The notes beneath the pieces are model-generated. The model was given only the letters and a program-made list of their open reading frames with translations, made no database searches and was not told where the DNA came from. The position numbers were made by a program, and so were the translations under genes. From Eubacteriales bacterium (GTDB lineage Bacteria; Bacillota; Clostridia; Oscillospirales; CAG-272), in NCBI GenBank assembly GCA_045633005.1, contig JAZQXT010000047.1, forward strand, positions 33,476-97,475: a stretch of DNA of 64,000 bases. The letters are read 5' to 3'. Positions 19,792-49,843 of this stretch are shown here, in pieces (positions within the stretch are counted from its first letter, which is position 1; every line of letters begins with the position of its first letter).

Positions 19792-19806
19792 TTTCACCTC
19801 CAAAAC

Positions 19807-19851
19807 AGAACATTTGTTCTATATTATAGCATAAAAAAAGAAGCTTGTCAA
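19807..19851 (-). promoter_or_regulatory. Sigma-A promoter with LexA (SOS) box over the predicted TSS
   Basis: TTGACA(19851-19846)-17nt-TATAAT(19828-19823), then AGAAC-AAAT-GTTCT (19820-19807) matching GAAC-N4-GTTC. Confidence 0.85.
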
Positions 19852-19934
19852 TATAAAAAGTAAAAACAAAAATCAAGCAAAGAAAAAACACGATCCACCT
19901 CCCTCTCCCCGCGCTCTCCCCATAAATCAACGTT

Positions 19935-19959
19935 GCCCCCGACCGAAACGGTCGGGGGC
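19935..19959 (-). terminator. Terminator hairpin
   Basis: GCCCCCGACCG-AAA-CGGTCGGGGGC after the LRR gene. Confidence 0.7.
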
Positions 19960-19967
19960 GAAATTGA

Positions 19968-22112
19968 TTATTGATTTTGTTCGGGTTCTGCGGGTTTAGC
20001 GCTGATGTGGGTAAGGTATCCGGGCTTGCCGTCCTTACCGTCAACTATAGCATATTCTTTATCGGTTTTGGTGGAATCAAATGTCGTATTGTTGCCACCC
20101 ACCAAGCTATTGCATCTGGCAAACATTTCTCTGGACGAATTTTCGTAATTTGTTCCAATGTTGGTTTCTGGGATATTCGACATATCCCAATTATCGCCTA
20201 CATAGATCTTGGTCAATTTACAAGGGCGAGTTGTTACGTTAGTATCCTGCGCAAACATCCTTAGCGCCAGCAACACGTTTCTCGTATCAAACGACGAAAG
20301 ATCCAATTCTTTCAGGCTGGAGCATCTGTAAAACATTTCATACATAGTGTTGACATTGCTCGTATCCCAAGTGTTCAGACCTATGATCTCCTCAAGCAAA
20401 CCGCAGTTTTCAAACACCTGCGCCATATTAACTACCTTTTGGGTGTTAAAGCTGGAAAGGTCGATTGTTTTAAGAACAGTACAATCATTAAACATACCGT
20501 CAATGTTCTCAAGGCTCGCGGTGTTCCAACCGTCAAAATTTATTTTTTCTAACCTGTAACAATCGGCAAACATATGGTACATAGTAGTAACCTTGTCTAC
20601 CTCAAGTCCGCTAAGATCCAGTTCTTTCAGATAACCGCATCCGTAGAACATAGACTGCATATTGGTAAGGCTGAGAGTTTCCCAATTGCTAACGTTAATA
20701 GATAGCAAGCCTTGGTCGCCTTTGTTGGCTTTTGCAGCAGAAATAAAGCTTTGAAAAGTGGTGACCTTACGAACATCCCAATTGTCAACTGCCAACGTGG
20801 TAAGTCCCCTGCATATGCTGAACGTTCGTTCCATGTCCGTTACGTTTCCAACGTTCCAAGAACCAACAGCAAGCTCTGTAAGACTACAGCAATTATAAAA
20901 CGTACGGTTCATAGTATTAACGTTACTAACGTCCCATTCCGATACATCCAGATCAACGAGCGCTGAACAGTTATTGAACATACTCGCCATCGTTTCCGTG
21001 CGGCTCAACTTCAAATTAGTTGTACCAACCTTTTTCAAAGCAGTCATATTCATAAACAGCTCGTTGCTGTTCTTAGGCGTATATATCGCACTGTCAGCAA
21101 GGACGTAGATATCGTAGTTTGCGGCGTTGTCGGCATTGGGAAGATAGTAAGTATAAACTACCGCATCCTGCTCGACGCTCGTGAGAGTGCCCGCGTAGCC
21201 TTCGACCTTGTCAGCGTAGTCTTTGTTAAAACCAAACGTTATGTTTGCCACCTTGTCGGTGATAAGAGCATCGGCATTTCCATTAAGATTATGAAGCGCA
21301 GTTTTCAAGTCAATACCAACCACAAGCGTGAGGTTTGCGAAGGGGAAATCACTACCAAATCCCTCATCAAGCGCAGTTTCGGGATCTTTAAAGCCCGTGG
21401 ACTGGATAGCCTGAGTCCTTACAAGAACCTTATAATCGTTTCCAAAAGCATCTACCTCTTCGTTGGTAGCGTAGGAATCAAGCGCGATCTGCGAAAGGCT
21501 TATTTCCGTAACAGCTTCAGGCACTAACTCTATCTGATAGGTAGCCTTTGCGATAAAATACGTTTCGCCGTTGATTTCGGCAAGGCGCGGCTCCCACTCC
21601 CATTTCCACTGTTTTTCATCGTCATTCAGATTTATGTGTATCTTATCTTGGAACTCGTTAAAATCCGTATAGCTTCCCGCCTCAAACGCGAAGAAAACTC
21701 GGACGTATGCACCGTAGTCGCCGTTATTTCTTACGAAAACCATCTTATCAACTTCGTTGTTGATCTTCGCAGGGTCCCAAATGGGAGAGGTATAACCCGC
21801 CTTGATAGCATTTCCTTCGTTATCGTGGTCCCACTTAACGTGAGCGTTATCCTGCTCGCTAAAGGAGTAGTCAAACTCGCCATTGATGACTGCGGGAATC
21901 AGGGGCTTGTAATCCTCAAAATTCTTAACTATCTTATCAGCATCCTTCTGCTCGGTATCCACACGCTCATACTCCAGCAGCTCAATATCGACCTTGCCAA
22001 CGGTCATTATGTTTTCAGCTGACGCATCATCCTTAAGATACGCGATAGTGCCGAGGACGGATGCTACTGCAATCAGCGCAAGCGCTAAAACCCATGCTAA
22101 TATTTTTTTCAT
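19968..22112 (-). CDS. BspA/DUF285-type LRR surface protein with SipW-class signal peptide (copy 1)
   Basis: GTIAYLKD signal; repeated WDVSNVNTM..MF-type LRR units. Confidence 0.85.
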   Translation of the reverse strand: MKKILAWVLALALIAVASVLGTIAYLKDDASAENIMTVGKVDIELLEYERVDTEQKDADKIVKNFEDYKPLIPAVINGEFDYSFSEQDNAHVKWDHDNEGNAIKAGYTSPIWDPAKINNEVDKMVFVRNNGDYGAYVRVFFAFEAGSYTDFNEFQDKIHINLNDDEKQWKWEWEPRLAEINGETYFIAKATYQIELVPEAVTEISLSQIALDSYATNEEVDAFGNDYKVLVRTQAIQSTGFKDPETALDEGFGSDFPFANLTLVVGIDLKTALHNLNGNADALITDKVANITFGFNKDYADKVEGYAGTLTSVEQDAVVYTYYLPNADNAANYDIYVLADSAIYTPKNSNELFMNMTALKKVGTTNLKLSRTETMASMFNNCSALVDLDVSEWDVSNVNTMNRTFYNCCSLTELAVGSWNVGNVTDMERTFSICRGLTTLAVDNWDVRKVTTFQSFISAAKANKGDQGLLSINVSNWETLSLTNMQSMFYGCGYLKELDLSGLEVDKVTTMYHMFADCYRLEKINFDGWNTASLENIDGMFNDCTVLKTIDLSSFNTQKVVNMAQVFENCGLLEEIIGLNTWDTSNVNTMYEMFYRCSSLKELDLSSFDTRNVLLALRMFAQDTNVTTRPCKLTKIYVGDNWDMSNIPETNIGTNYENSSREMFARCNSLVGGNNTTFDSTKTDKEYAIVDGKDGKPGYLTHISAKPAEPEQNQ

Positions 22113-22160
22113 AACTTTTTCCTTTGGTTCATTTTATATTAAGCGATAAATATTTCTTCA

Positions 22161-22183
22161 CCCCCGACCGTTTCGGTCGGGGG
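22161..22183 (-). terminator. Terminator hairpin between the LRR paralogs
   Basis: CCCCCGACCG-TTT-CGGTCGGGGG, same stem as 19935-19959. Confidence 0.65.
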
Positions 22184-22192
22184 CAAAAATGA

Positions 22193-24388
22193 TTATTGAT
22201 TCTGATTCTGTTCGGGGTCTGCGGTTTTAGCGCTGATGTGGGTAAAGTATCCGGGCACGGCGGGGGTGTCGCCGATAGCGGGCACGTCGATGCGGGCGTA
22301 TTCTTTATTGGTCTTTTCGGAATCAAATACCGTACCTGCGCCACCTACCAAGCTGGTGCAATTAGTAAATAAACCAGTTGAATCTCCGGGAGGGATACCC
22401 TTCCAACCGTCGCCGACGTAAACGGTCTTGAGGTTCGGGCACTTATAGAATGCATAATTCGTAGCATGCACCTGTTCGGAGTTCATTCCGCTCAGGTTGA
22501 CCTCCACCAAGTTCGTACAATTGGTAAACATATACGCCAAGGATACGGTTTTACCGGGGGCGGGATTAAAGCCGCGCAGATCAAGCTTTGTCAAGTTTAC
22601 GCAGCCCGAGAACATTCCAAAAAATGCTTTAGCCGCGGATTGAGATATATCATATGCGCTTGAGGTAACCCACTTGGAGAAGTCAAGATTAGCTATTTTC
22701 ATTTCATAAACATTATCTACGCCCGCATACGCATCGTATCCTGCAAGGAAACGCTCAAACGTCTCAACCTTGCGCACGTCCCAATTGCTTATATCCAAAT
22801 ATTCAAGTTCCAAGCAACCACCGAACATCGTTTTCATATTGGTTACGTTGCTCGTATCCCACTTGGAAACATCCAAATTGTTAATAACGTAGTCGTTTGC
22901 GAACATTCCATACATATCGGTGACGGCGGAGGTGTTCCAGTTCGAAACGTCTACTGTCTCCAGCGCATAGCAGTTACTAAAGGTCATGCGAAGATTTTGA
23001 ACGTTACTGATGTTCCACTTGCTTACGTCCAAATTATTTATCGCATTACACTTGTTGAAGGTTCTGTAAAGCAAAGTAACCTTACTAACGTCCCAGTTTG
23101 TAAGATTCAAGGTCTTAAGGCAATTGCAATCCTCAAACGTTTGCTGCAAGTTTGTTACATTGGAAGTATCCCAATTTGTAGTATCCATAGCCTGCATACG
23201 GTAGCACCTATAGAACATACGGTACATATTGGTAGTCTTGCTTACGTCCAAGTTTTCTGTATTAACGTTGATCAGCCAATCCATAGTCGCAAAAAGGTTG
23301 CTACTGTCAGCAGGGGTATAAATAGGACCGTCGGCGAGGACGTAAAGGTCGTACATCGGTACTTCCTTTACTACGTTACCGTCCGCATCCGTTTCCGTTC
23401 TGATGTCGGGGACGTAGTAGGTCTTGACCTGCGACTCCTGATCAACGTTGGTGTGCACGCCCTCGTAGCCATTAACGATAGAGAGATAGTCCTTGTTTTT
23501 GCCAAATGTTACGCTATCGACCGAGGAGGTTATCTTGGTTCCATTAGCATCGCCGTTCAGATAATGCAGCGCGGTATAAAGGTTTACACCTTCAATGTAA
23601 ATGTTGTCAAACGGGAAATCTTCGCCAAAGCCTTCGCTCAAAGCCTCGTCGGGAGTCTTGAAGCCCGCGGACTGAATGCCCTGCGCGTTTACGAAGACCT
23701 CGTAGGTATCGCCAAATGCCGCCACCTGTTCGTTGGTTGCAGTGGAATCAAGCGCGATCTGCGAAAGAGTTATATCGGTAAAGTCGCCGGGCAACAGCTC
23801 TTTTTTATAAGTAGCATTTGCGATGAAATACTTTCCGCCTTGGGAATTGGTGGCAAGAACCTTCTCCCATTCCCACTCCCAATCACCTGTTTCGTTCAGG
23901 TTCAGGTGGATCATTTTACGGAATTCATCAAAATCGGTGAACGCGCCCGCCTCAAACGCAAAATAGATGCGAACGTACGCGCCGTAATCGCCCTTATTTT
24001 TAAGGAAGACCATCTTATCAACTTCGTTGTTGATCTTCGCAGGGTCCCAGATGGGCGAGGTATAGCCGTCATCGTCGTTCTGCTGCTGCCACTTAACGGC
24101 ATCCTGCGTCCAATCGACGTAAGTATCGCCGGGAGTGTAATCAAAGCCTTTTTCGATAACGGCGGGGAGCAAGGGCTTGTTATCGTGGAACTCCTGCACC
24201 TTTGCATCCGCGTCCTTAGTCTCGGTATCGATACGCTCGTACTCGAGCAGTTCGATGTCAACGTTACCGATGGTCATAACGTTAGTCTCGGAGTCCGTGT
24301 CCGTAAGGTACGCGATAGTTGCGGCAATGGAAATGAGAATGGTAAGAACCACAGCAACAACACCAAGAAGTATCTTTCTCTTTTTCAT
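22193..24388 (-). CDS. BspA/DUF285-type LRR surface protein with SipW-class signal peptide (copy 2)
   Basis: MKKRKILLG...ATIAYLTDTD; WDTSNVTNM repeats; start reassigned to 24388. Confidence 0.85.
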   Translation of the reverse strand: MKKRKILLGVVAVVLTILISIAATIAYLTDTDSETNVMTIGNVDIELLEYERIDTETKDADAKVQEFHDNKPLLPAVIEKGFDYTPGDTYVDWTQDAVKWQQQNDDDGYTSPIWDPAKINNEVDKMVFLKNKGDYGAYVRIYFAFEAGAFTDFDEFRKMIHLNLNETGDWEWEWEKVLATNSQGGKYFIANATYKKELLPGDFTDITLSQIALDSTATNEQVAAFGDTYEVFVNAQGIQSAGFKTPDEALSEGFGEDFPFDNIYIEGVNLYTALHYLNGDANGTKITSSVDSVTFGKNKDYLSIVNGYEGVHTNVDQESQVKTYYVPDIRTETDADGNVVKEVPMYDLYVLADGPIYTPADSSNLFATMDWLINVNTENLDVSKTTNMYRMFYRCYRMQAMDTTNWDTSNVTNLQQTFEDCNCLKTLNLTNWDVSKVTLLYRTFNKCNAINNLDVSKWNISNVQNLRMTFSNCYALETVDVSNWNTSAVTDMYGMFANDYVINNLDVSKWDTSNVTNMKTMFGGCLELEYLDISNWDVRKVETFERFLAGYDAYAGVDNVYEMKIANLDFSKWVTSSAYDISQSAAKAFFGMFSGCVNLTKLDLRGFNPAPGKTVSLAYMFTNCTNLVEVNLSGMNSEQVHATNYAFYKCPNLKTVYVGDGWKGIPPGDSTGLFTNCTSLVGGAGTVFDSEKTNKEYARIDVPAIGDTPAVPGYFTHISAKTADPEQNQNQ

Positions 24389-24438
24389 GATCTTATTCCT
24401 TTCAGAATATTTATAGCGGTTTATCCAATGCGATAAAA

Positions 24439-24664
24439 ACATAATTCGCATTATGTTGCACAGGATACACCTATACAGATAAATTTTAACATGTAAATTC
24501 TAAAAAGTCAACAGTTCTTCATAAAAAACGGCACAAAAACAACACCAATGATACCGATTTTTTCATTGGCTTTGTTTTTGCGCCCTTTTTTGGCAGATAT
24601 TAGTAGAGTCGTTGGCTATGTAGAAAATAATCTTTCCCTAAATGCAACATAATGCGAATTATGT
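24439..24664. promoter_or_regulatory. Invertible promoter segment bounded by 22-bp inverted repeats
   Basis: ACATAATTCGCATTATGTTGCA (24439-24460) and its exact reverse complement (24643-24664); internal TTGACT-17-TAAAAT promoter faces the LRR gene. Confidence 0.85.
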
Positions 24665-24723
24665 GATATTTAATGTCGGTGTTTTTAGCATCGGCTTTTT
24701 TTATAGCGGCGCTATGCGCAAGG

Positions 24724-25563
24724 TCAAACTATCAAGCGCATATTTTCCATCTTACGCTTGTGCTCCTCGCCCGTTGTGACTATATATATCCGCGTGGTGT
24801 TGATGTTGCTGTGACCGAGAATGTCCGCGAGCTTGGCGATGTCCTTTTCGATTCCGTAAAACGTCCGCGCGAAAAGGTGGCGCAGATTATGCGGAAACAC
24901 CTTAGCGGGCGAAACGTGCGCATCTGCGCACAAACGCTTCATCTCGCGCCAGATGCTGCATCGCTCCATCGGCTTCCCTGCTTTTGTTAGGAACACGCAG
25001 CCCGTCGCAATTCTGTTTCTTTTGGCATAATTTAATAGTTTTTTCTGCAATCCCCGAACGATAAAGACCGTTCGGGTCTTATTTTTGCAGGACACCACCG
25101 TCTCGCCCTTGCGCACGGCTTCTACCGTGATAAACCGCAATTCACTAACGCGGATACCCGTGCCGCATATCGTTTGCAGTATCAGATTTAATCTCTCGTT
25201 TCCCTTTTGCTTTGCGGCGTTGACCAAGCGAAAATATTCGTCTTTAGTCAATTCGCGCTCCTCTGAGCAGAACGCCTTTCTTTGAATTTTAAACTGCTTG
25301 ATGCAAAGCTCACCCCACCCTAAAAAGCGAAAGAAAGCATTTAGTGCCGCTATCATTGAGTTTGCGCTTGACAGCTCATATTTTTCGGCAAGATATGCCT
25401 TGAACTCTATAGCAAGCGTTTTGCTGATTTCTCTTACGCTTGCAAATTCGCGGAGGAACCGCACGTCACGAATATACTTTTGTATTGTATTTTCGCTTTT
25501 TTCCTCAAATCGAAGGTAATTTTCAAATTCTTCAACAGCTGAATCGGTAATTATTTTTTTCAC
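24724..25563 (-). CDS. Tyrosine recombinase (putative invertase)
   Basis: TGIRVSEL, K(NK)TR, FPHNLRHLFA, LGHSNINTTRIY catalytic residues. Confidence 0.92.
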   Translation of the reverse strand: MKKIITDSAVEEFENYLRFEEKSENTIQKYIRDVRFLREFASVREISKTLAIEFKAYLAEKYELSSANSMIAALNAFFRFLGWGELCIKQFKIQRKAFCSEERELTKDEYFRLVNAAKQKGNERLNLILQTICGTGIRVSELRFITVEAVRKGETVVSCKNKTRTVFIVRGLQKKLLNYAKRNRIATGCVFLTKAGKPMERCSIWREMKRLCADAHVSPAKVFPHNLRHLFARTFYGIEKDIAKLADILGHSNINTTRIYIVTTGEEHKRKMENMRLIV

Positions 25564-25852
25564 AACAAACTCCTTGCCTGAGGTTTAATATGATAATTTA
25601 GTATTCCCAAGTAAATAAAGAAAAACATCTGCTTAAAATTACAGATGCTAAAAAATAAACCGTATTTTCTTTAAATGTGAGTTATATTCGCCACAAGCCA
25701 CGCCAACGGTCCCACTCTTTAAATAACGTATTAAAGCGCTATATATTTGCGTTTATTATATCAGTTTTTTCAAACTCCGTCAATTATTCCCCCTATCACA
25801 TTTATGGAATCTTTAGTAGTCACCACAGGCATTTAGCTTATGGTGACTACTT

Positions 25853-26046
25853 CTTTACCCCGCCCTTCGCGCGCGTGTTACGGTAGGAACGAACGGGCTT
25901 GAGGCTATCGTTTTCGCCATTTGCTCCATCGCGTCACAGCGGACGGCTTCCGCACGCGAGATCGGGGCGGTCGCGGTCGGCTCGAATATGCGTCTGCAAT
26001 ACGGCTCGTCAAAGCTTTGCATGGCGATATATTCTCTGTTGCCTAT
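25853..26046 (-). repeat. 194-bp direct repeat: 3' fragment of the xis-like gene at 44648-45169
   Basis: Near-identical to 44646-44839 (only a few substitutions). Confidence 0.9.
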
Positions 26047-26073
26047 ATACCCAAACTTCGCATACGCCCATCA

Positions 26074-26610
26074 TTACTCCTCGCTCTCGCCCCCGCTCTC
26101 TTGGGTTACCGCGTCGGTTTTTGCGCTTTTTACGAGAGGAAGTGCGCGCTTTGTCCTGAACATATCGAACGCGATGACTCCCGCGCAGGCAAGAGCGAGA
26201 ACAGCCGCCACGACGTGATATTTGGGATGCCCCGTTTGGAAATACGTTTTCATAGCGTCTGCGGCAACGTCGATAAACGAAACCGCCTCGTTGGCATATA
26301 TCCTCGACGCCAAGACTGTGACGAAGAAATTCGTGCTCATGAGGACGATCATATAAAGCACTACGCACGCCGCCGCTGACGCAATTTTCGCCCAAATGCG
26401 GCAAAGTTTGGATTGTACGAAGACAAAAACACTCAACGCAAGAAGCGCATCACACGCGAATGAAGCGTATTCAAAATCCGCGGAAATCAACTGTTCTCCT
26501 CGGCCGCCGTGACAGATGAGCACTATAAGCAAAGCCTTTATGCAAACGGATAATGCCGCAAAAATGCTTATCGTAACGGCTTTAAATTTAAAATCAAATT
26601 TAATTTTCAT
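26074..26610 (-). CDS. Hypothetical integral membrane protein
   Basis: Four hydrophobic segments; AAGGAG RBS. Confidence 0.65.
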   Translation of the reverse strand: MKIKFDFKFKAVTISIFAALSVCIKALLIVLICHGGRGEQLISADFEYASFACDALLALSVFVFVQSKLCRIWAKIASAAACVVLYMIVLMSTNFFVTVLASRIYANEAVSFIDVAADAMKTYFQTGHPKYHVVAAVLALACAGVIAFDMFRTKRALPLVKSAKTDAVTQESGGESEE

Positions 26611-28702: not shown

Positions 28703-28831
28703 ATACCCTCCTCGGTATTTGTTTGATTTTTGAAAGTTTTTTGTATACTGATCATCTTTATACGTTATCAAGGGGGATGAGTCTGCATAGTTTGTTAACC
28801 GTCCTTTCTTTTGATTTTTTTAAATTGCCAT
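28703..28831 (-). repeat. Duplicated intergenic block A (partner 40182-40308)
   Basis: High identity, including RBS GAGGAGGGT. Confidence 0.85.
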
Positions 28832-28997
28832 TTTCTCCTCACTCCCGATATCTTCGGGGGAATGGAATAGACAATTCTTATTTGCGGGTTAATCGAGCGA
28901 AGCGAGAAAACTTTAGATGCATAATACAGCCAAACTTCGTTTGATCAAGCGAAAAAAACATAGTATAGATGAGGCACGTGAGTCTTTTTAAGCGACA

Positions 28998-29294
28998 TTA
29001 TGACGCAATAGCCAAATTGGTGCGAGGAGCAGCTCCCTTGATAACACCCCACGGAAGCACATCGGGATATTGAATGGAGTCAAGGATAAAGAAGAACCCG
29101 CCGTCGGGAAATTCATTAACAGCTGTTACGTAGAGCTTACTTCCAACGGGAGCCATCGTCTTACAGAAACCTGTGATTTGTTGGCCATCGCATGCTTCCG
29201 CAACAATATAACAACCTTTCTTTGAGGAACGAACCACCTCTGCAGGTAAACTGTCAAAATTCGAAACGTCATGTGAAAAGAATTTTATGTACAT
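28998..29294 (-). CDS. Hypothetical protein
   Basis: AAGGAG RBS; first codons MYIKFFSHD repeated near 40888, where the copy is truncated. Confidence 0.6.
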   Translation of the reverse strand: MYIKFFSHDVSNFDSLPAEVVRSSKKGCYIVAEACDGQQITGFCKTMAPVGSKLYVTAVNEFPDGGFFFILDSIQYPDVLPWGVIKGAAPRTNLAIAS

Positions 29295-29497
29295 GGTTTT
29301 ATCTCCTTTTTTGTTTGTATCAATAGTCTACGCCAATTTTACTAACTACACAATAGGGATCCGAGGTGAGAAGTAGTTAGTAAGACACGTTTTTTTCGCT
29401 GGCTATCAAAATAATCGCACAACTACTACTTGCTTACGTATGGCAATACCACCTCACAAGCAAATAATCACTTACTTATTTATCGATTTTCAAAAAG
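29268..29497 (-). repeat. Duplicated block B (partner 40863-41089) containing an 11-bp inverted repeat
   Basis: High identity; TTACTAACTAC...GTAGTTAGTAA in both copies. Confidence 0.85.
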
Positions 29498-38202: not shown

Positions 38203-38570
38203 ATTACATCAGTTAGATACATTGGACAATAACATAATCGACATTATGTTGCTAGTAGATCTTTTAAAACGCTATTTGTTTTTTAATTATACCATAAAAA
38301 CACAGAAACTACAATAAGTTTTGCCATATTTCATCAGGTTTCAATGAACACAAAAATAAATTAACACGACCGAAGAAGCCTTTTCACTCTTGTTTTTCAA
38401 ATAAGCGCGAAAAGGCTTTCTTGTTATGCCAAGATTCAGTTGCTATGTAACAATATTTGTAAACTCAGATGAGGCTACCACAGTCCCGAACAAGATCAAC
38501 AATGTCTTCAATATTCTTTATCAGAAAAGCCGTAACTTTTCATTTCTGATTTTAGCGTTTCAATATCAGT

Positions 38571-39588: not shown

Positions 39589-40041
39589 TTAAATAATTTT
39601 GATTTTATCTTCAAGAATGTGAACAGCATCTTCTTGTTTGATTGCTTTAAAAGATACCAACGCCACATTCGGAAGAACGATTGGAAAATACAAAGTTTTT
39701 ATGCTCGCGGGCATTGCCTGAAAGATTACTTTTATATACTCAATATCATCTCCAGACAATTTAGGTTGATTTGGGGGATGAGAGTGAAACATTCCGGCGA
39801 ACTCAATCCCTTTTTCTTCAATTTCACAAATTTTTGCATTTAGAAAATCAACATTAGGAATGTAAATCGCTCTCTTCCTTTGAGGCAAACTGTTATCGTA
39901 AAAACAAGAGCAAACGACTTCATTTTTTATGCCGATAATTCCACCGGTTTCTGGTGGAGCTAGCGGACAATTGATTATTTTTTCATATACATCTGTCAAA
40001 ATTTTCATCATTAGCTTCTTTTCATTATAATTAAATAACAT
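39589..40041 (-). CDS. JAB/MPN (Mov34) metallopeptidase
   Basis: PETGGIIG and GMFHSHP....LSGDD JAMM motif. Confidence 0.88.
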   Translation of the reverse strand: MLFNYNEKKLMMKILTDVYEKIINCPLAPPETGGIIGIKNEVVCSCFYDNSLPQRKRAIYIPNVDFLNAKICEIEEKGIEFAGMFHSHPPNQPKLSGDDIEYIKVIFQAMPASIKTLYFPIVLPNVALVSFKAIKQEDAVHILEDKIKII

Positions 40042-40296
40042 TAACTCCTAAGGCTGTTACTTTGGCTGCATCTAAGGCGCGCGAACACGAATTAGAATCA
40101 TCATCTTCTCTCCTTATCTTTCATGTGGATGCTCTGCGATCCATGCATATATTATACATTAATAAAGCGTAGCAATTCCGCATACCCTCCTCGGTATTGG
40201 TTTGATTTTTGAAAGTTTTTTGTATACTGATCATCTTGATACGTTATCAAGGGGATGAGTCTGCATGTTTGTTCACTGTCCTTTCTTTTGAATTTT

Positions 40297-40674
40297 TTAA
40301 ATTGCCATCTCGCAGAAGGTAAAATCGCCAAGCGCAGCTCTTGCGTACTTCTCCGAAAAGTAGCGAAGATATTTTTTATTATTCTCTTTTTTTGAAATAT
40401 ATTCAATCAGATAGATTTCAAATCCGCTATCTTTGGGGACTACAGAATAGACAATTCTTATTTGCTGGTTATTTATTCCTCTTCCCTTATAAACAAAAAG
40501 CTCATTATTGACACGATCATATATCACGGAGTCGAGATTGAAAAGCCTGTTCATATCTTTAACATCAAGAGTGGAGAGCTTTTCGTTTAACTTTAAAATG
40601 TTTTTTAGTAAAGACATTTTCATAGCACTATCTGCCTTCTTATACTGACATTTACTGTTTATAAATACTTTCAT
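40297..40674 (-). CDS. Hypothetical protein, possible RelE/ParE fold
   Basis: Basic 125-aa protein, LFVYKGR..QIRIVYSV; AAGGAG RBS. Confidence 0.5.
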   Translation of the reverse strand: MKVFINSKCQYKKADSAMKMSLLKNILKLNEKLSTLDVKDMNRLFNLDSVIYDRVNNELFVYKGRGINNQQIRIVYSVVPKDSGFEIYLIEYISKKENNKKYLRYFSEKYARAALGDFTFCEMAI

Positions 40675-41158
40675 TTTTGCCTTCTCCTTTTCATCGTGGC
40701 ATCTCTCGTGCCTATGTATATATTGTATATCAACCAAAGCAGCGTTTGCAATTTTAAAGCAAAATGGAAAAATTAGGTAAAAATATCAAACCTAATTTTT
40801 TACACAGCATTGCGAATCAAACCATTGCATCAATCACTCCACACGCCAGCGCTTCGTTCGCTGTCATGTGAAAAGAATTTTATGTACATGGTTTTATCTC
40901 CTTTTTTGTTTGTATCAATAGTCTACGCCAATTTTACTAACTACACAATAGGGATCCAAGGGAGAAGTAGTTAGTAAGCCGCATTTTTCGCTGTCTATCA
41001 AAATAATCGCACAACTACTACTTGCTTATGTATAGCAATACCACCTCACAAGCAAATAATCACTTACTTATTTATCGATTTTCAAAAAGCACACGTCGTA
41101 TTAGTTACAATATAAAAAGGCACCCGTTTGGGTGCCTAAGCAATTATTGATTCGTGGC

Positions 41159-43870
41159 TTATGATAATTGTCTCGGATTACTAACAAAAGACTGATAACC
41201 TTTGGGGAATCTGTCGTATTTCAAAAAAACGGTATTTGTATAGTTTTCCTCACATTCGTTATAAGTACATTGGGAGATATAGTATGACAAGAGGCGTCGC
41301 TGAAACCAATAATATCTGCTGTTTCGGCTTTCCTTTTCCATCCAACCACGATATTCCTTAATATAATCAATGTTCAAAGCAGAGTCGTTTTGGCTTGGCA
41401 AGGCAACTGTAACATCAAATTCAAAGGTGTTAAAAAAACGAAACGATCCGCAAATCATGGTCATCTCATTTATTCTCGACGGATAATATGGATTTTGCCT
41501 CTTTTGAAAGAAGTCGGCATAAAAAACCACTTTCAAAAGATGATTTAAAACGCTTTCCTTTTCTTCGTTTTTCTTTCCAAGAACCTCCTCCACAATAAAC
41601 GTGTCAGCATTACATTCTAAAGCCGGACAGCAAATATTGGATAAAGCATACAACCACAATTGCATTCCGTAGAGCTTTTTAACTGCATCGTCCCCCGAGG
41701 ACTGAATGCTAAAAGTAGTCTCATTAAAATTACATATTTCCTTGTCGTACGCTTTCCTTAGACACGATTTGGTTTTTTCATAATTTTCAGTAACCCAACT
41801 CTCGTACTGCGCACGTGAGGTCAAATCAAAAAACTCAAGGCTATCAATTGAGTCAAGTTTGCCTTGACAGAAGGTTTGATAGAAATAGAACTCCGGCTGT
41901 TGCTTAAACGTATAGTTTTCATCTCCCTCAAGAGTGATTTCCAACGCTTTCCGGAATTGCTCCTGAGGATACTTTTTAAAGAAAGCATTTTTCCTCATCA
42001 TTTCTCGCAACAGTGAAGCTTGTGCAGGGTAGAGTTGGCGACTACATGAAGCAGTAAATGCTGATTTCGTATTTTGATAGGTAAACAAATCGGGGTTTGT
42101 AGCCATTAAATAACACAATATATGGGCAGCAAGCTCTTGCTCAAAGCGACCGTTGTTTTTTACCTCGTAATTTTTAGCTCTTTCGATAAGCTCTATTATG
42201 AGTTTTTCTCTAAAATGTATACTCGCATGTGTTAATAATGATAATGCAAACAGAGAGGGCTCTGCCAACCTAAAATCCAAGTGGTCCATCAAATTATCCG
42301 GCTTTGAAAAATAAAACATCTGATCGATCGCAGCGCCTACTATATTAGTTTTTCCGGCCGTTTGATTTTCCTTGGATTCGCAAATGAACCTTTCTTCAAG
42401 AAAATAAGCCGTAAAAAAGCCATCCAAATATATGCGAACATATTTTTGCGAAAAGCGATATTTCCCATCTGAATGGTTTTCGATCAAGCCGTTATTAATA
42501 GCCTCCTTTAGCATATTTTCCTCTGCGTTTTCCATGCAACCATCACTTGAATAAGAATATGAAAACACGTGGTTTCCCTCGCGAGCGCTATTCGCCAATC
42601 GCCCAAGAAAGCATTGCATATCCAAAACAGAGTATTCTTTGTATTTTGTTTTATTTTTAAAAACTATTTGATTCAATGCGTTGTTTGCAAAGGATGCACA
42701 AGCTTCAAACAAAGGGGAAAACGTAATATCAAAGTCTATTTCGGTGCAACTATGAGACTTTATCGTGATGGAAGAAATTGTCTTTAAAATATCTATAGCA
42801 TCTTTGTTTTGCCTTCCGTCGTCTCCTCTGAAAAAATAATTAAATTCTTCAGGCTTGGCTTTGGAAAACAATTTGGATTCCAGCCGACGGGAATATTCTT
42901 TTTTCTTGCTATTGTAACTAGCAAAAAACTCTCTTCTTTTTTCTTTATTTGTATTTGTGGTAATATTCCATCCTTGCTGTTGCAGTTCTTCGATCGATAG
43001 AGTTGAATCTATATGACACCTCGGGGAATCCAGACATCCCAAAATTTCAGCCGCCAATTCTTCAATTTTTTTGGCGATATGAGCCTCATCCATTCCTTTT
43101 AATTGCTCCAAATATGCGCACACATCCCCACTTGTTAAATTGTAACAATTAAGAATGGAGAGATTTCTGCCAAGTACAATAGATATATATATTAATAAAT
43201 ATCCTAACTCCTGCGGCTTTTTTTCAAAAATCTTCTTGATTAATTTTGTATACGATACTTGATTACAATAAAAAGCCGTTCCGCTTGTTCCACCGTGAAG
43301 ATAAATCGTGCCATACTTAAATCTGAATGCAGGGCAAAACTTCAGATCACTCGTCTCCACTTGCGCGAGTCTTTTTCCTCCGAGCGTATAATGTTTAAGC
43401 AGTAGATTGGGCTTGGGTCTATCGGACATTTCCGTCAGCAAATTTTTTTCAATTATTTTTTTGAAATCAAAATCAATTACGCAAACTTTCTTGCTACCGC
43501 ACAGTCCTAGTGCGGACATGCTTAAAATATCCTCCACATCTAAAAGAGAGACTATCAAAGGCGATAGCGTTTTTTTGTGTGGGACTGTTTTTTTGGGGGA
43601 ATCAATAATATCATCTTTTTCAATTTCTATAATACGATTCTTTTTTCCTTGGAGGGGTGTAGAATTATCATCATTTTTACAAATTATTTTATATTTTTGG
43701 GTATTGGGATTAAAACCTATAATCACTCCTTCATAGTTTTTCCTTTTGTTATACCTGAATTGAATCGAGCTTCCAAACTCATAATCAAGTCCGTATTCCT
43801 TGGTTAAATCAGAGCAAATCGATTGCTCCAAATCTTTTGGTTCTTCAAATTCTAATTTAGATCGAGTCAT
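41159..43870 (-). CDS. Large AT-rich hypothetical protein with a STAND-like winged-helix motif
   Basis: ~900 aa; FLGRLA...NGLIE..DGKYRFSQKYVRIYLDGFFTAY; no clear Walker A. Confidence 0.65.
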   Translation of the reverse strand: MTRSKLEFEEPKDLEQSICSDLTKEYGLDYEFGSSIQFRYNKRKNYEGVIIGFNPNTQKYKIICKNDDNSTPLQGKKNRIIEIEKDDIIDSPKKTVPHKKTLSPLIVSLLDVEDILSMSALGLCGSKKVCVIDFDFKKIIEKNLLTEMSDRPKPNLLLKHYTLGGKRLAQVETSDLKFCPAFRFKYGTIYLHGGTSGTAFYCNQVSYTKLIKKIFEKKPQELGYLLIYISIVLGRNLSILNCYNLTSGDVCAYLEQLKGMDEAHIAKKIEELAAEILGCLDSPRCHIDSTLSIEELQQQGWNITTNTNKEKRREFFASYNSKKKEYSRRLESKLFSKAKPEEFNYFFRGDDGRQNKDAIDILKTISSITIKSHSCTEIDFDITFSPLFEACASFANNALNQIVFKNKTKYKEYSVLDMQCFLGRLANSAREGNHVFSYSYSSDGCMENAEENMLKEAINNGLIENHSDGKYRFSQKYVRIYLDGFFTAYFLEERFICESKENQTAGKTNIVGAAIDQMFYFSKPDNLMDHLDFRLAEPSLFALSLLTHASIHFREKLIIELIERAKNYEVKNNGRFEQELAAHILCYLMATNPDLFTYQNTKSAFTASCSRQLYPAQASLLREMMRKNAFFKKYPQEQFRKALEITLEGDENYTFKQQPEFYFYQTFCQGKLDSIDSLEFFDLTSRAQYESWVTENYEKTKSCLRKAYDKEICNFNETTFSIQSSGDDAVKKLYGMQLWLYALSNICCPALECNADTFIVEEVLGKKNEEKESVLNHLLKVVFYADFFQKRQNPYYPSRINEMTMICGSFRFFNTFEFDVTVALPSQNDSALNIDYIKEYRGWMEKESRNSRYYWFQRRLLSYYISQCTYNECEENYTNTVFLKYDRFPKGYQSFVSNPRQLS

Positions 43871-44221
43871 ATCCTTCTCCCTAAAAAATCGCAAGCTTGC
43901 TATATTTTATCATCAACTTTTCAGCAAATTGATAATTAGTGAATTGCTTAAAGTCTTTTTTACATCACTTATCTATTTGCTTACTAATATTTGCTCCTTC
44001 GCGCGGGCATATAGGCAATATACACAAAAATTATACCATAATCATGTGAATAAATCAATATAATAATTATCACATAATTAATATATATTTTTTCAAGGTT
44101 GTTTTGCAAAATATTGTACGTCATGTTGAATCAAATGAAAAAGCTGATGAAGGTTTTTGCGCCCTCATCAGCTTACTTTATTAGTTGTTATCAACAATAT
44201 GGCTTTCAACGCAGATTATCA

Positions 44222-44488: not shown

Positions 44489-44647
44489 AAGTTGCACCTC
44501 CTATAGCACAACACAATACCACAGAAGATAGAGAAAGTCCAGCTTTTTTGTGAAAATTGATCCACCTTTTTCACGGCTCTACTATTTGCTTACTGCAACG
44601 CAAATACTAATTATCCGCCAAGGGCTTTGCCCTTGGCGGATATTGCT

Positions 44648-45169
44648 TTACCCTGCCCTTCGCGCGCGTGTTACGGTAGGAACAAACGGGCTTGAGGCTA
44701 TCGTTTTCGCCATTTGCTCCATCGCGTCACAGCGGACGGCTTCCGCGCGCGAGATTGGGGCGGTCGCGGTCGGCTCGAATATGCGTCTGCAATACGGCTC
44801 GTCAAAGCTTTGCATGGCGATATATTCTCTGTTGCCTATGCGAATGCACGGGATCCTGCCGTCCTTCACCGCGCTTCTTATGAGTTTTTCTCCGATGCCC
44901 ATCGCGGGGCGGCTTCCCTTCAGCTCTGCCGCCGCCCCTCTGATGGTGCGGATATGTGGAATGCCGCCATTCCCTTCAAAGCCGAGAAGGCGGTTGAGTG
45001 TAGGCGCGAGCGCCTCCGCATCGGCGACCAGACGGTTACCATGGTAGGTATGCAGAAGCTGCTTTGCTTCTGCCAAAGCCGTAAGAAATGACGCTCCGAC
45101 GGCTGATGAAGGATCAAGCGTTTTTATTTCTGCGATAATACTCGGGATCGTTTTTATTCTCAACCGCAC
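44648..45169 (-). CDS. Excisionase-like tandem HTH DNA-binding protein
   Basis: Two repeats (IKTIPSII.EIK..DP / IRTIRGAA.ELK..RP), IPCIRIGNR; overlaps the integrase stop. Confidence 0.7.
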   Translation of the reverse strand: MRLRIKTIPSIIAEIKTLDPSSAVGASFLTALAEAKQLLHTYHGNRLVADAEALAPTLNRLLGFEGNGGIPHIRTIRGAAAELKGSRPAMGIGEKLIRSAVKDGRIPCIRIGNREYIAMQSFDEPYCRRIFEPTATAPISRAEAVRCDAMEQMAKTIASSPFVPTVTRARRAG

Positions 45170-46386
45170 TCCTCCCTTTCTTTATTCGTTACGATATCGG
45201 CAATCAGCTCGGCGGCGCGGCGTTTGGACGTATCGTAGGGAGTGAGATATTGTTCCGTGGTGCGGATGCTCTCGTGCCCGAACACCGCCTTGACCGTTTC
45301 AAGATCCGCGCCGTTCTCCACGAGGAGCGAGCCGCAGGTGTGGCGAAGTCCGTGGAGCTTGAGGTGACGCAATCCTCGGCGCTTTTCATAATCGCTGCAC
45401 ATTTCCGTGGGAGCATAGAGGCTTATCATATCTCCGAGCTCATTCGTAAACACAAATCCCTGCTCACGCCATCTTGCCCCCGCCGCACTTCTCTGCTCGT
45501 TCTGCTCCGCTTGCCATTCCAGCATTGCCATCTTGTATATATGCGAAAAATATACGGTGCGAATGCTGTTCTGCGACTTCGGAGCTTTGAGCGCTTGAGG
45601 CTTGCCCTTCTCCTTGTACGCGCTCTTGTTTACGGAGAGGGTGCAATTCTTAAAATCAATATCCTCCCACTTGAGCGCAACCACCTCACCGCGCCTGAGT
45701 CCCATGAGAAGCGCGGTCATAAGGAGTGCGCGTGTTCTCGGCGGCTCGTCCGACAGCCCTTCCATGAACGCCGCCGCTTCATCACGGTCGTATGCCCTGA
45801 CGGGTTCTTTTTTAATTTTCGGATACCGCACGGCTCCCATGCGTAGCTTGTTTTCTTCAACGAAGCCCATACGGTGCGCCTCGGTCATCAGAGAGGAAAA
45901 AACCGTGGCGTAACGCTTAACGGTCGATGCCGCGAGCGGCTTGACGTTACTCTTATCCGCACGCGCTTCGGGCGTGGTGAGGTAATCTATCAACGCCTGC
46001 TGATGCCTTGCCGTTATATCGGTCAAGCGTATTTTGCCGAAGGACGGGACTATAATATCCTCAATAACGGAGCGATAAAACGTCAGCGTGTTGGGGGAGA
46101 GATGTCCCTTTACGCTTTTGAAATAATGCTCTGCGGCAAAGGTGCCTACCGTCATTCCAAAGGGATCGACGGTATTTTCACCGCGCTTGCCGTGAACGTA
46201 TAGCCCGTTATGCACCGATGCCTCGAACAGCTTTGCAAATTCTTTGACTCCGCGCTGTGTTTCGCGTTCGGTAAAATCCTTCGGAGGCTTGTAGGTTGCT
46301 GATATAAGCTCCTGCTTGCCGTCCTTGCATCCATTGGATACTCTGACGCAATACGTGCCGTTCTTACGGCGATAGTATGATGCCAT
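45160..46386 (-). CDS. int: Tyrosine integrase (Tn916/ICEBs1-like)
   Basis: N-terminal arm-binding domain; GLRRGEVVALKW, HGLRHT, FGHESIRTTEQY. Confidence 0.93.
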   Translation of the reverse strand: MASYYRRKNGTYCVRVSNGCKDGKQELISATYKPPKDFTERETQRGVKEFAKLFEASVHNGLYVHGKRGENTVDPFGMTVGTFAAEHYFKSVKGHLSPNTLTFYRSVIEDIIVPSFGKIRLTDITARHQQALIDYLTTPEARADKSNVKPLAASTVKRYATVFSSLMTEAHRMGFVEENKLRMGAVRYPKIKKEPVRAYDRDEAAAFMEGLSDEPPRTRALLMTALLMGLRRGEVVALKWEDIDFKNCTLSVNKSAYKEKGKPQALKAPKSQNSIRTVYFSHIYKMAMLEWQAEQNEQRSAAGARWREQGFVFTNELGDMISLYAPTEMCSDYEKRRGLRHLKLHGLRHTCGSLLVENGADLETVKAVFGHESIRTTEQYLTPYDTSKRRAAELIADIVTNKEREECG

Positions 46387-46457
46387 TTTTTACACCTCCG
46401 TCATTAGATTAGCTCATCACGGTGGCTATTTCCACCGCCTGATGCTTTATGATAGCG

Positions 46458-47867
46458 TTACATTTTAATGCCAAAGCTTTCTTCCTCGTATTCATCCTCC
46501 GTCTGCTCGTCGCCATCGTCCGAGTCTTGGCTGATACCAAGCACGATACCGATAGCCGTACCGACAGCCGCACCAAGCGCGGAGCCCGTGTTGCGTGCTT
46601 CTCTCCGTTTCTTTTCCTCCTCGGATTCATCGCCGCTCTCAATTATACTTGCTATATCCCCAAGCCCACGCGCGCCCATAAAAGCAATACCAATATCATC
46701 GGCGCCGCCGTGAGTATGAGGCGAATGAACCATATCGCTTCGTCCCGAATGATCCTTCTGTTTATAACTCTTGAAGCTCTCTCGCTCGCGTTCCCAACCT
46801 GTTCGCTCGCTTCTTTTGCTATCTTCTTTATTTGCTCCTCTGCCGTCCGTGTCTGCTCCTGCGCCGCCTTTGCCATCGCCTCGGCGTACTTGCTCGCCTC
46901 CGCCTGCAAGCTCGCTCTTTGAGCCGTTAACTCGGCGCTCAGCGCTTCCAGACGCCTCACCATAGCCAGCAGATCGTTCCAGTCCCGCTCGCTCATCTGA
47001 ACCATTGTATTTCCCACATTCGGCTCGTGTTCGATAAGCGAGGAAGGGATATTCCTCGCCTTGAGCTTGTCCATATAGCTCTGCCCTGATCCTGAACTCA
47101 TGCTCCATATTCTCCTTTTGATATTTTTCTTCGTGCAATTTTATATCCCGCACTCGCTTTTCCGTACCGTCCTCAGCCTTCAGAATATAAGTAATATATT
47201 TTCTCTCGGGTGTCCACATCACGTCATAGCCGAGCTTTTTCATCTCGCGCAGGAACTCGCCCTTGCTTTTACAGCGCTTCATGCAATGGTCGATCGCTAC
47301 GCATAGCTGTATCTTCCAGCTGTTGCCGTTCACGGCGGCTCGGTATTCCTTGGGACTCGGGCGGAACGATTTATTTCGCGGATCGTATTTTTCAAGCACG
47401 TCAAGTCCGTGCGCCCGACAGATCTTATCGCTCAGCTCACGAAGGTCGCCAAGGAAAAATTTATTGTTGTGCAACTTCATTCCGCTTTCAAGCTCGTATG
47501 AGCATACGACCAGATGGTTGTGGATATGCTCTCTGTCTATATGAGTGGCTATCAGCACCTCACGGTTTCCAAATCCACAGGCAAGCTCCATACCTATCTC
47601 GTGTGCTTCCTTCGGCGTGATGTCCTCTCCGACCTTGAATGATTGCACGTAATGATAGAAGCGGACACCGTCGGGCTCGTGTCCGAACACCCTTTGCGTT
47701 GCAAGGAATGATTCGTTTGCCATTTCGGGAACACAATTGTAACCCGACACGTACGCAAGCCGCTCGTCCTCGTCAACCGTTTTCGACGGTTGCACACAGT
47801 AATCTATCACGCCCTTCTGCGCGCTCGGCGTTTGCTTCTTCTCGGGGATACATTCAACGATTGCCAT
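46458..47867 (-). CDS. MOBP-type relaxase
   Basis: IDYC, YHYVQSF, ATHIDREHIHNH (HUH) motifs; start reassigned to 47867. Confidence 0.9.
   Translation of the reverse strand: MAIVECIPEKKQTPSAQKGVIDYCVQPSKTVDEDERLAYVSGYNCVPEMANESFLATQRVFGHEPDGVRFYHYVQSFKVGEDITPKEAHEIGMELACGFGNREVLIATHIDREHIHNHLVVCSYELESGMKLHNNKFFLGDLRELSDKICRAHGLDVLEKYDPRNKSFRPSPKEYRAAVNGNSWKIQLCVAIDHCMKRCKSKGEFLREMKKLGYDVMWTPERKYITYILKAEDGTEKRVRDIKLHEEKYQKENMEHEFRIRAELYGQAQGEEYPFLAYRTRAECGKYNGSDERAGLERSAGYGEASGSAERRVNGSKSELAGGGEQVRRGDGKGGAGADTDGRGANKEDSKRSERTGWERERESFKSYKQKDHSGRSDMVHSPHTHGGADDIGIAFMGARGLGDIASIIESGDESEEEKKRREARNTGSALGAAVGTAIGIVLGISQDSDDGDEQTEDEYEEESFGIKM
46652..47101 (-). CDS. Overprinted MobB/MbeB-like coiled-coil + TM protein within the relaxase gene
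   Basis: Alternate frame, GGAG RBS, coiled coil and C-terminal TM helix. Confidence 0.6.
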   Translation of the reverse strand: MSSGSGQSYMDKLKARNIPSSLIEHEPNVGNTMVQMSERDWNDLLAMVRRLEALSAELTAQRASLQAEASKYAEAMAKAAQEQTRTAEEQIKKIAKEASEQVGNASERASRVINRRIIRDEAIWFIRLILTAAPMILVLLLWARVGLGI

Positions 47868-48171
47868 TGTTATTACTCCCAAGAACGAGAAGTATTTTTC
47901 TGTACACCGTCAGAAGCTCCGCAAGGTCTATCACCGTCGTTCTGCCCTGATGAGCAAGGCGTGTAAGCTGATTAAGATTGTTTCCTTGATAGCGAAGCTC
48001 CGAGTTCAGCTCGCGCAGATCGCTGTTGACAACGATCTCACCGTTCAAGCACATATCCATAACGAACTGCCGCATCGACGGTGCTACCGCCTCGTACATT
48101 CGTTCCTGTATAGCATATTTTTCTTCGGGCGTTACCCGAACCGTAATCGTTTCCGTTTGCGTTCTTCCCAA
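47854..48171 (-). CDS. mobC: MobC relaxosome accessory protein
   Basis: RHH N-terminus; LRYQGNNLNQLTR. Confidence 0.88.
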   Translation of the reverse strand: MGRTQTETITVRVTPEEKYAIQERMYEAVAPSMRQFVMDMCLNGEIVVNSDLRELNSELRYQGNNLNQLTRLAHQGRTTVIDLAELLTVYRKILLVLGSNNNGNR

Positions 48172-48253
48172 TAAATCACCTTCTCCTTCTTTTACGTTCC
48201 TTTACAAAGCAAAGTGGGTTTGGGCTTCTGCCCGATATAATGCGCTATGGCAT

Positions 48254-48293
48254 CACCGCCGACGGCGGTGGACGTCCTTGCGCTATGCTTGCC
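48254..48293. other. Putative oriT
   Basis: Inverted repeat CACCGCCG-A-CGGCGGTG and nic-like TATGCTTGCC upstream of mobC. Confidence 0.55.
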
Positions 48294-48417
48294 CCAGACG
48301 CAAAGCGTCAGGGAGTGGAAGAAAAACAAAATCACGCCCTTCTCCCGTGTCGGCGTGTCGGCAGCTTTGAGCGCGAGAGCCGCTACAGACGCTACCGACG
48401 CACCGACGCAAAATGCT

Positions 48418-49491
48418 TTACGCATCCGCGCTTTCTTCCCCGCTATGAACGCGCACTATCTTGATTTTCTTTCCCTCGTGCGTTCTGTAAAATGAGCATT
48501 CGTACCCAAGAGAACAGAACTGCGCGTGTCCGCACAACAGCTTTTTTGAGAGCACCGCAGGGGAGATATCAACACCGCTATGCTCCTTCAAGAGATCGGC
48601 AAGCTCTGTTGCGCTTCCGCAAAACTCGTCCGTGCCGCTCTGAATAAAATAATCGCTCACCTGATTTACCGTGGGATCGATCAATTTTACAAGCTCGGGA
48701 TTTTCATCACGCAAAACCCAAGTGCAGCTCTCCTGTGAGAACACGAGAGGTATCTCCAAGGTTTTGATATCTCTGCCCGTGCAGAACAGCGTTGCCGCAT
48801 TTTCGGTTCGCTTATCCCTTTGCAATATGAAGGTGCTGTCTACCGCACCCGAGATTCCCGTTGAGCCTGTTAGTGTATTCACGGGATCGCTTGCTCCCTG
48901 CTTTCTCAAATGGTGAACGAGAATAATAGCAACACGGTGCTTGGATGCAAGAGCCTTGAGAGTGCCAAGCTCCTTATAGTCGTTGGAATATAGATTGGCG
49001 GCACTTCCGACGTCCGATCTTATCTTCTGAAAGGTATCTACGATGATCAGCTTCGTATTTCGGTTTTCCTCCATGAATTTATCTATGTCCTCACAAAAAC
49101 CGTCAGCGAGAGTTTTGCACTCGACCGCACAATGAAGGTTTGGACTTCCCTCGTCCGTGATATCGAGAAGCCTTCGCTGCAATCTCTCGTAGCTGTCCTC
49201 CAAGGCAAGATACAGAACCGTCCCCTGCTTGCTTTCATAATTCCATATAGGCGCGCCCTTCGCAACCATAAGACCAAGCCAAAGCATCAGCCACGACTTT
49301 CCTATCTTCGCCGCGCCTCCGATAATATGAAGCCCCTGCGGTATCAGCTCGGACACAACGAACGGCGCAGTTTCAAGCGGTGTGTTCACCAAGGTTTCAG
49401 CGTCCATCGTTTCCAGCCCCGTAAGACCAAGAGCCGAAAGCATTTGTCTGCGGAAGTTTTCATCAAAGCTAAACTCTTTTTCTTCGTTCAA
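48418..49491 (-). CDS. AAA_25/RepA-type helicase-like ATPase
   Basis: GAAKIGKSW, YLALED, IVDTFQ, LVHHLRK, GSTGISGAVD; probable TTG start after GGAGGTG. Confidence 0.88.
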   Translation of the reverse strand: MNEEKEFSFDENFRRQMLSALGLTGLETMDAETLVNTPLETAPFVVSELIPQGLHIIGGAAKIGKSWLMLWLGLMVAKGAPIWNYESKQGTVLYLALEDSYERLQRRLLDITDEGSPNLHCAVECKTLADGFCEDIDKFMEENRNTKLIIVDTFQKIRSDVGSAANLYSNDYKELGTLKALASKHRVAIILVHHLRKQGASDPVNTLTGSTGISGAVDSTFILQRDKRTENAATLFCTGRDIKTLEIPLVFSQESCTWVLRDENPELVKLIDPTVNQVSDYFIQSGTDEFCGSATELADLLKEHSGVDISPAVLSKKLLCGHAQFCSLGYECSFYRTHEGKKIKIVRVHSGEESADA

Positions 49492-49843
49492 TAAGGCACC
49501 TCCGTTATTTTGTTTCAATGATTTTAGTCCTCGTCCGCGCACGACTCGGACCCCTTTTTGTCGACAGCAAAATTCTACCACAGCACTTGACAAAAATCAA
49601 TAGATAATGTATACTGTCTCTATCGTTATCTATTTTGTTATCTATTTTACTTGAATTTACATTTTGTTCACAAGTGGATTTTGCAAGGCGGAGCAAGGGA
49701 TTTCGGCACGTTTGCATGCCGTGATGCAAATTTTTTCAACCGTAAAAGCAGAAAAAATATTTTTACCCGAGCAAGAGTTATACATACAAATAAAAGTTTT
49801 TTATAATTTTTTCAACTTTTTTATTTATTAAGGAGTGTTTGTT

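Follow-up and report, generated by a model that had tools for sequence, protein, structure and literature searches.

An invertible segment with a predicted promoter, beside a tyrosine recombinase gene, likely switches two secreted repeat-protein genes in a member of the Clostridia

The locus described here lies in a window of 64,000 nt, the whole stretch of DNA that was analysed and to which all coordinates refer, on contig C47 of the 99-contig genome G000 of a Eubacteriales bacterium. Two perfect 22-bp inverted repeats, one proximal to a surface-protein gene (24439-24460) and one proximal to a recombinase gene (24643-24664), enclose a segment of 182 bp (24461-24642), exactly as the first-pass annotation of this DNA had located them. 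The repeats stand out by their length of 22 bp: when the window was resampled 60 times with matched composition, perfect inverted repeats within 1 kb reached maxima of 12-17 bp. The sites are indeed palindromic, but the fixed 7-4-7 form given for them at first (ACATAAT-N4-ATTATGT) was not borne out, as the conserved form is ACATAA-N6-TTATGT. In the gene-proximal site the 6-bp spacer is TTCGCA and the core is accompanied by an inner TGCA; the recombinase-proximal site is inverted and has the identical spacer. The outer arm of the left site deviates from the family consensus. An Rfam search of 19800-26100 returned no match near a gathering score.

Within the segment, the minus strand carries an extended -10, Sigma-70-type promoter-like motif (TTGACT-17-TG.TAAAAT, 24511-24483), which is 26 nt from the site core and faces the gene starting at 24388, as had been annotated. 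Three motifs of the same kind were found against 3.4 ± 2.0 expected, so that the motif of this predicted promoter, taken alone, is at chance level. Behind it, a long hairpin with A-run and T-run ends, previously claimed at about 24523-24590, was found at 24523-24591 with a z of about -7 on either strand; it is likely to act as a block to read-through. Outside the right site, the plus strand has a terminator-like hairpin with a T-run (24675-24703) that is conserved in genome G007, with a folding z of -1.7 that is not significant.

The intact tyrosine recombinase gene of the initial description is present on the minus strand (25563-24724), with its 3' end 59 bp from the right repeat. Its 279-aa product, the candidate invertase, is the only close member in the genome, has Phage_integrase and N-terminal SAM-like domains, and keeps the residues R138, K162, H225, R228, H251 and Y260, which we take to be catalytic under the R-K-H-R-H-Y scheme. 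Its nearest solved structure is the XerC-like recombinase 4a8e. Identity as a chromosomal dif/Xer system was rejected, as the protein falls under all Xer cut-offs (112.5 of 329.6 bits for XerD, 111 of 335.15 for XerC, 52.4 of 267 for XerS, and 138 of 220 for archaeal XerA). Compared with a lone terminus dif, the 6-bp centre is present, but the genome has five exact-core sites, two of them as an inverted pair. Two models named 'tyrosine-type DNA invertase' match the recombinase weakly (26.9 and 20.4 bits against cut-offs of 221 and 222). Upstream of the gene, a predicted promoter (TTGACG-17-TATAAT, 25783-25755, minus strand) and a terminator-like leader hairpin (25649-25624) are both kept at the related locus L039. 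Lying between this promoter and the GTG start, the leader hairpin could keep recombinase levels low.

The first gene behind the switch (22193-24388, minus strand) encodes a secreted 731-aa protein with a SipW-type signal, a beta-sandwich domain, and DUF285/PARCEL and BspA-type LRR (LRR_5) repeats. Its 714-aa paralogue, which also has DUF285/PARCEL and LRR_5 repeats, follows 80 nt downstream (19968-22112, minus strand) and is likely co-transcribed with it. The start at 24388 is an ATG with a ribosome-binding sequence and agrees with the starts of the paralogues; the ORF tool instead places it at an ATG at 24451, within the repeat. A SipW-type signal is recognized in the first protein, which scores 24.7 bits with the SipW-cognate signal model TIGR04088 (cut-off 19), while the second just misses it at 18.3. 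The SipW-type peptidase model TIGR02228 has two matches above its cut-off on other contigs of the genome and none on the contig of the window. The N-terminal domain is modelled confidently (pLDDT 91) as beta-rich, and fold searches with it gave weak pilin- and Ig-like matches (best Z 7.1, rmsd 4.7, 141 aligned) and the archaeal bundling pilin 7ueg at E 3.4e-3; TasA is absent from the fold-search matches listed, which excludes nothing. The adhesin and SipW-type structure named at first are thus putative roles, suggested by the signal model and the repeat domains.

Paralogues of these proteins gave 15 matches in the genome, corresponding to about 14 genes on five contigs. Because only two of the 15 matches lie behind the switch, it cannot turn off the whole surface-protein family, and the control of LRR surface proteins first attributed to it holds for two genes and not for the family. 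One paralogous repeat-protein gene (L154, G000:C26:14613-15340) is broken by stops. The same GC-rich hairpin stands after each of the two repeat-protein genes (19936-19960 and 22161-22184) and after many paralogues in relatives, and is possibly a processing or stability element.

As assembled, the segment is in the ON orientation. Its inverted form was found in contigs of the sequencing runs X5 and X3 and in the assembly of G007. The runs were compared as contigs, with a best share of words of 0.43 in any run, and represent near-identical strains. In X5, a 58-nt contig corresponds to the predicted OFF junction, in which the 8-nt flank of the recombinase side is followed by the site and by 28 nt from the promoter-bearing end of the segment, with 50 nt free of differences. 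X3 contains both reciprocal OFF flanks as loose ends, as well as an opposite-strand joint between 24461 and 24643 in a more diverged contig (13 differences). The ON form of the switch is spanned in full in X7 (4 differences), and its left junction is spanned in X4. No run had ON and OFF junctions together among the listed pieces, and no joint was seen in X1 and X2 (apparently one data set) or in X9. A loose end at 24664 in X4 resembles the gene-side flank of a further site on contig C67; it may stem from a run contig that matches the repeat only and was not counted as evidence. The G007 assembly shares the spacer, the flank on the recombinase side and the inner segment, which is turned round there (score 153 in flipped orientation versus 39), and the switch of G024 is in the ON orientation. 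Two further pairs of loci differ in the same way: L018 and L021 are identical at 242 of 243 positions inside the segment, and L075 and L141 are 98% identical, each pair being in opposite orientations relative to their recombinases.

These junctions bear on the reading that the family inverts while the copy in the window is largely frozen ON, or has no phenotypic relevance since the paralogous clusters are constitutive. The degenerate outer arm of the left site, the three likely single-site relics in the genome and the 13 of 15 paralogue matches outside the switch would all fit such a state. However, the OFF junctions occur in near-identical sequence (0-1 differences), the recombinase is intact and the two spacers are identical, and we regard a frozen copy as highly improbable.

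The same arrangement is widespread. When species genomes were scanned for pairs of cores separated by 186-216 bp, at least 120 loci emerged, and the 80 named records among the listed pair loci are mostly from Clostridia. The two spacers are reverse complements of each other in 118 of the 120 listed pairs and direct in none, and 69 distinct 6-bp spacers occur among them. A recombinase homologue lies tail-on to the site at 106 of the 120, within 150 bp in 103 cases; among the 14 pairs that lack a nearby homologue, five have at least 600 bp of flank on both sides. The site arms reach a symmetric consensus of about 10 bp. A protein-first search, whose loci may overlap with those of the pair scan and were not pooled with them, found the recombinase homologue in 16 of 41 related genomes, kin not being independent. 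Of the 25 homologue loci besides that of the window, 12 have two or more sites downstream (with matching spacers in 11), two have one and 11 have none; in eight of these 11 the sequence stops no more than about 200 nt past the match, and three have 428-1500 nt downstream with no site. Two loci, neither a close copy of the switch in the window, came from a metagenome pattern scan, and one with matching spacers and a recombinase from viral contigs. Three-site switches were noted in two relatives (L006, and L014, which is the same as L159), and a two-site switch of 517 bp (L155) in another.

A motif-based call of orientation for 106 loci and the window (107 in all) gave 78 OFF, 21 ON including the window, and eight unclear. 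Of the 99 family promoters called, 95 end no more than 58 nt from a site, and the other four calls are weak. The hairpin is frequent and not universal (30 of 95 loci beat all shuffles, and 27 of 95 have a z below -3), and it has no strand preference across the family (54 of 99). Downstream of 73 recombinase-bearing loci with long flanks, 62 first ORFs were found, 60 of which were scanned together with one more. They match SLH, cohesin, dockerin, collagen, LRR, VWA, capsule and NusG-like proteins among others, and many have no match or are not surface proteins.

The core of the sites, CATAA-N6-TTATG with a 6-bp centre, is that of the inner part of dif sites, as given in the accessible part of PMC2731167. 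This likeness would fit inversion by a Xer-type recombinase of the host, or dif-like sites that serve mainly for the integration and excision of a mobile module, and so would the surroundings of the switch. The recombinase shares 95% identity with its counterpart at L039, whose gene comes after an integrase and whose switch has another spacer and stands before another gene, and it is 78-85% identical to those of G007 and G024; the place of the module on the chromosome differs among G000, G007 and G024. Next to the recombinase gene in the window, a 206-bp sequence (25841-26046) is a direct repeat of 44634-44839, where it forms the 3' end of a gene that follows an integrase, and the two copies enclose an 18.8-kb low-GC island that extends from the recombinase to a nearby integrase/relaxase element. 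In contrast to dif, the window family has close inverted pairs, variable spacers and symmetric arms, as for one enzyme; none of the 120 listed pairs is direct, 106 have the recombinase family tail-on, and the enzyme scores far under the XerC, XerD and XerS cut-offs. On balance, we find the host Xer or mobile-module explanation quite improbable.

Several other features of this neighbourhood were recorded. The integrase, relaxase and AAA_25 genes at 44634-49593 likely belong to an integrative mobilizable element. Two pieces of the island (28703-29497 and 40182-41089) are duplicates, 93-99% identical and about 11.5 kb apart, and at 39589-43894, also in the island, lie a JAB-domain gene and the genes of a 146-aa and a 911-aa protein with no Pfam matches, possibly defence-related as a guess. 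In G007, a stretch just upstream of the recombinase (L151:7934-8007) is a 92% copy of G000:C67:39234-39308, just downstream of the C67 cluster, which hints at a past transposition of the switch module.

A scan of the genome for more copies of the repeat found three further exact cores, none of them paired. One, with the spacer TCGACA, lies in the window at 38232-38249, preceded by a hairpin and, at a distance of about 36 nt, by a promoter-like motif, in a leader that extends to about 38450 before a run of PP2C, Ser-Thr kinase, FHA and FHA-ABC genes. The three other matches to this PP2C operon among 401 genomes have neither a full switch nor the single site before it. The other two cores are each 26 nt behind the same type of promoter, before paralogous clusters of SipW-type repeat proteins: that at C67:49876 (L149) is identical to the site in the window over 22 bp, spacer included, and that at C81:6219 (L150) differs by one spacer base. 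A one-mismatch core at 62570 (C47:96045), apparently within a coding region, is probably a chance occurrence.

That single copies stand in the leader regions of three further promoters, in two cases again at 26 nt, first prompted the idea that a transcription factor uses the palindromes as operators, the pair in the switch forming a repression loop. Spacer identity in 118 of 120 pairs, linkage to a recombinase and inverted junctions would all be needless for operators, and the idea, to which we give almost no credence, was dropped on these grounds. Most likely, the single sites are former switches locked ON after loss of the partner site. Downstream of a 258-aa gene, the three genomes differ at one address: in G007 a full switch stands there together with the recombinase and an extra gene, in G000 (C81) the promoter with one site, and in G024 (C59) the promoter with a remnant of a hairpin arm and no site. 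At C24 of G007, a site remnant matching 12 of 18 positions (counted by eye) stands at the same 26-nt position. The hairpin arm at G024:C59 was reached by 0 of 200 shuffles against the switches of G007 and G024 and was not significant against that of the window; it is the only significant case among the suspected hairpin remnants upstream of single-site or site-less promoters. Decayed hairpins suspected by eye upstream of the C67 and C81 promoters did not rise above shuffles.

With all 22 bp, spacer included, in common with the sites of the switch, the site on C67 could be used by the one recombinase of the window. It is conceivable, if unlikely, that the single sites are live and that the C67 site and the switch recombine over a long range, swapping the clusters that stand behind a switchable and a fixed promoter as a dispersed, genome-scale shufflon. 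If true, such exchange would be a means of surface-protein variation. Contig overlaps yielded no order for C47, C67 and C81, and a suspected join of C81, C76 and C47 was not supported.

Spacer covariation, linkage to the recombinase and inverted junctions in near-identical strains support the central proposal of the first-pass annotation, in which an invertible promoter stands in its ON state and is served by a tyrosine recombinase of its own. We consider it very probable that the 182-bp segment inverts, that the adjoining recombinase likely flips it, and that the flip likely switches the two secreted repeat-protein genes on and off; it is gene linkage that points to this enzyme as the probable catalyst. 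Tyrosine recombinases bind symmetric arms at two sites and exchange strands across a shared 6-bp spacer, and facing spacers lead to inversion. In the window, the enzyme would bind the symmetric arms of both dif-like sites and exchange strands across their shared asymmetric spacer, and inversion is the expected outcome because the spacers of the two sites face each other. In the ON state, transcription from the promoter would cross the left site and enter the two surface-protein genes, which start at 24388 and 22112. In the OFF state, it would face the 3' end of the recombinase gene, with a transcript that presumably stops at the terminator at 24675-24703, and the long hairpin at 24523-24591 would prevent read-through into the surface-protein genes. 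A convergent OFF transcript or a terminator carried by the switch could also bias its state. In fimS, the terminator affects fimE mRNA (accessible text of PMC9993118). The excess of OFF calls in the family fits such a bias but may also stem from selection.

Transcription could alternatively come from outside the segment, for example from the recombinase promoter, with the hairpin as an orientation-dependent terminator. The hairpin is strong and has T-runs, there is a good promoter-like motif ahead of the recombinase gene that is directed towards the segment, and cwpV of C. difficile provides the precedent (PMC2784873, in its accessible part). Yet a near-consensus promoter-like motif lies inside the segment at a distance from one site that is conserved throughout the family, the same promoter type stands ahead of paralogous clusters that have no recombinase, and the family hairpins fold about equally on both strands, so we hold external transcription to be exceedingly improbable and retain the inverting promoter as the preferred model.

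Among characterized systems, the comparison with fimS drawn at the outset is apt, and that with cwpV is not. In fimS (FimB/FimE), according to the accessible text of PMC9993118, the invertible segment adjoins a tyrosine recombinase gene, carries a promoter and a terminator, and controls surface genes; the switch in the window has the same layout, with a predicted promoter and a likely terminator. In contrast, fimS is 314 bp long, has repeats of 9 bp and depends on IHF, whereas the switch in the window has dif-like sites with a free 6-bp spacer, and its 279-aa enzyme carries a SAM-like domain at the N terminus and matches the two invertase models weakly. With cwpV/RecV it shares an inversion of about 200 bp upstream of a surface-protein gene, a Firmicute host and a tyrosine recombinase. 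However, the cwpV segment has no promoter in the account accessible in PMC2784873, where termination is proposed, whereas the segment in the window has a promoter-like motif inside, in a conserved position. RecV is a master enzyme for several sites, of which only Cdi7 has a recombinase beside it (PMC5903667, accessible part).

The closest parallel is with inverton group 139 and invertase group 35 of the hCom2 study (Jin et al. 2025, PMC11892184). In the portion of that paper available, 32 of 33 cases are from Clostridia, the adjoining tyrosine recombinase is not driven by the switch, and two examples span 254 and 256 bp, sizes that fall within those of the family described here. Sharing the Clostridia host, an adjoining undriven tyrosine recombinase and a span of about 250 bp, the switch in the window probably belongs to these groups. 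Neither the build of the sites nor SipW-type cargo nor relics with one site are described for them in the available portion, and the accessible text of PMC11602134 has no matching motif. A literature search, outside which most subscription papers fell, found no description of ACATAA-N6-TTATGT as an inversion site.

The switch in the window is a further case of a known and widespread kind with a textbook mechanism, and adds one well-evidenced member to a large and barely characterized family of promoter switches in Clostridia. The free 6-bp spacer, with 69 variants, would let several switches use one enzyme without cross-recombining, and its combination with symmetric dif-like arms may be useful as a compact invertase toolkit. 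In close relatives, the same promoter also occurs with one site or with none, which suggests a route by which phase-variable promoters proceed to fixation.
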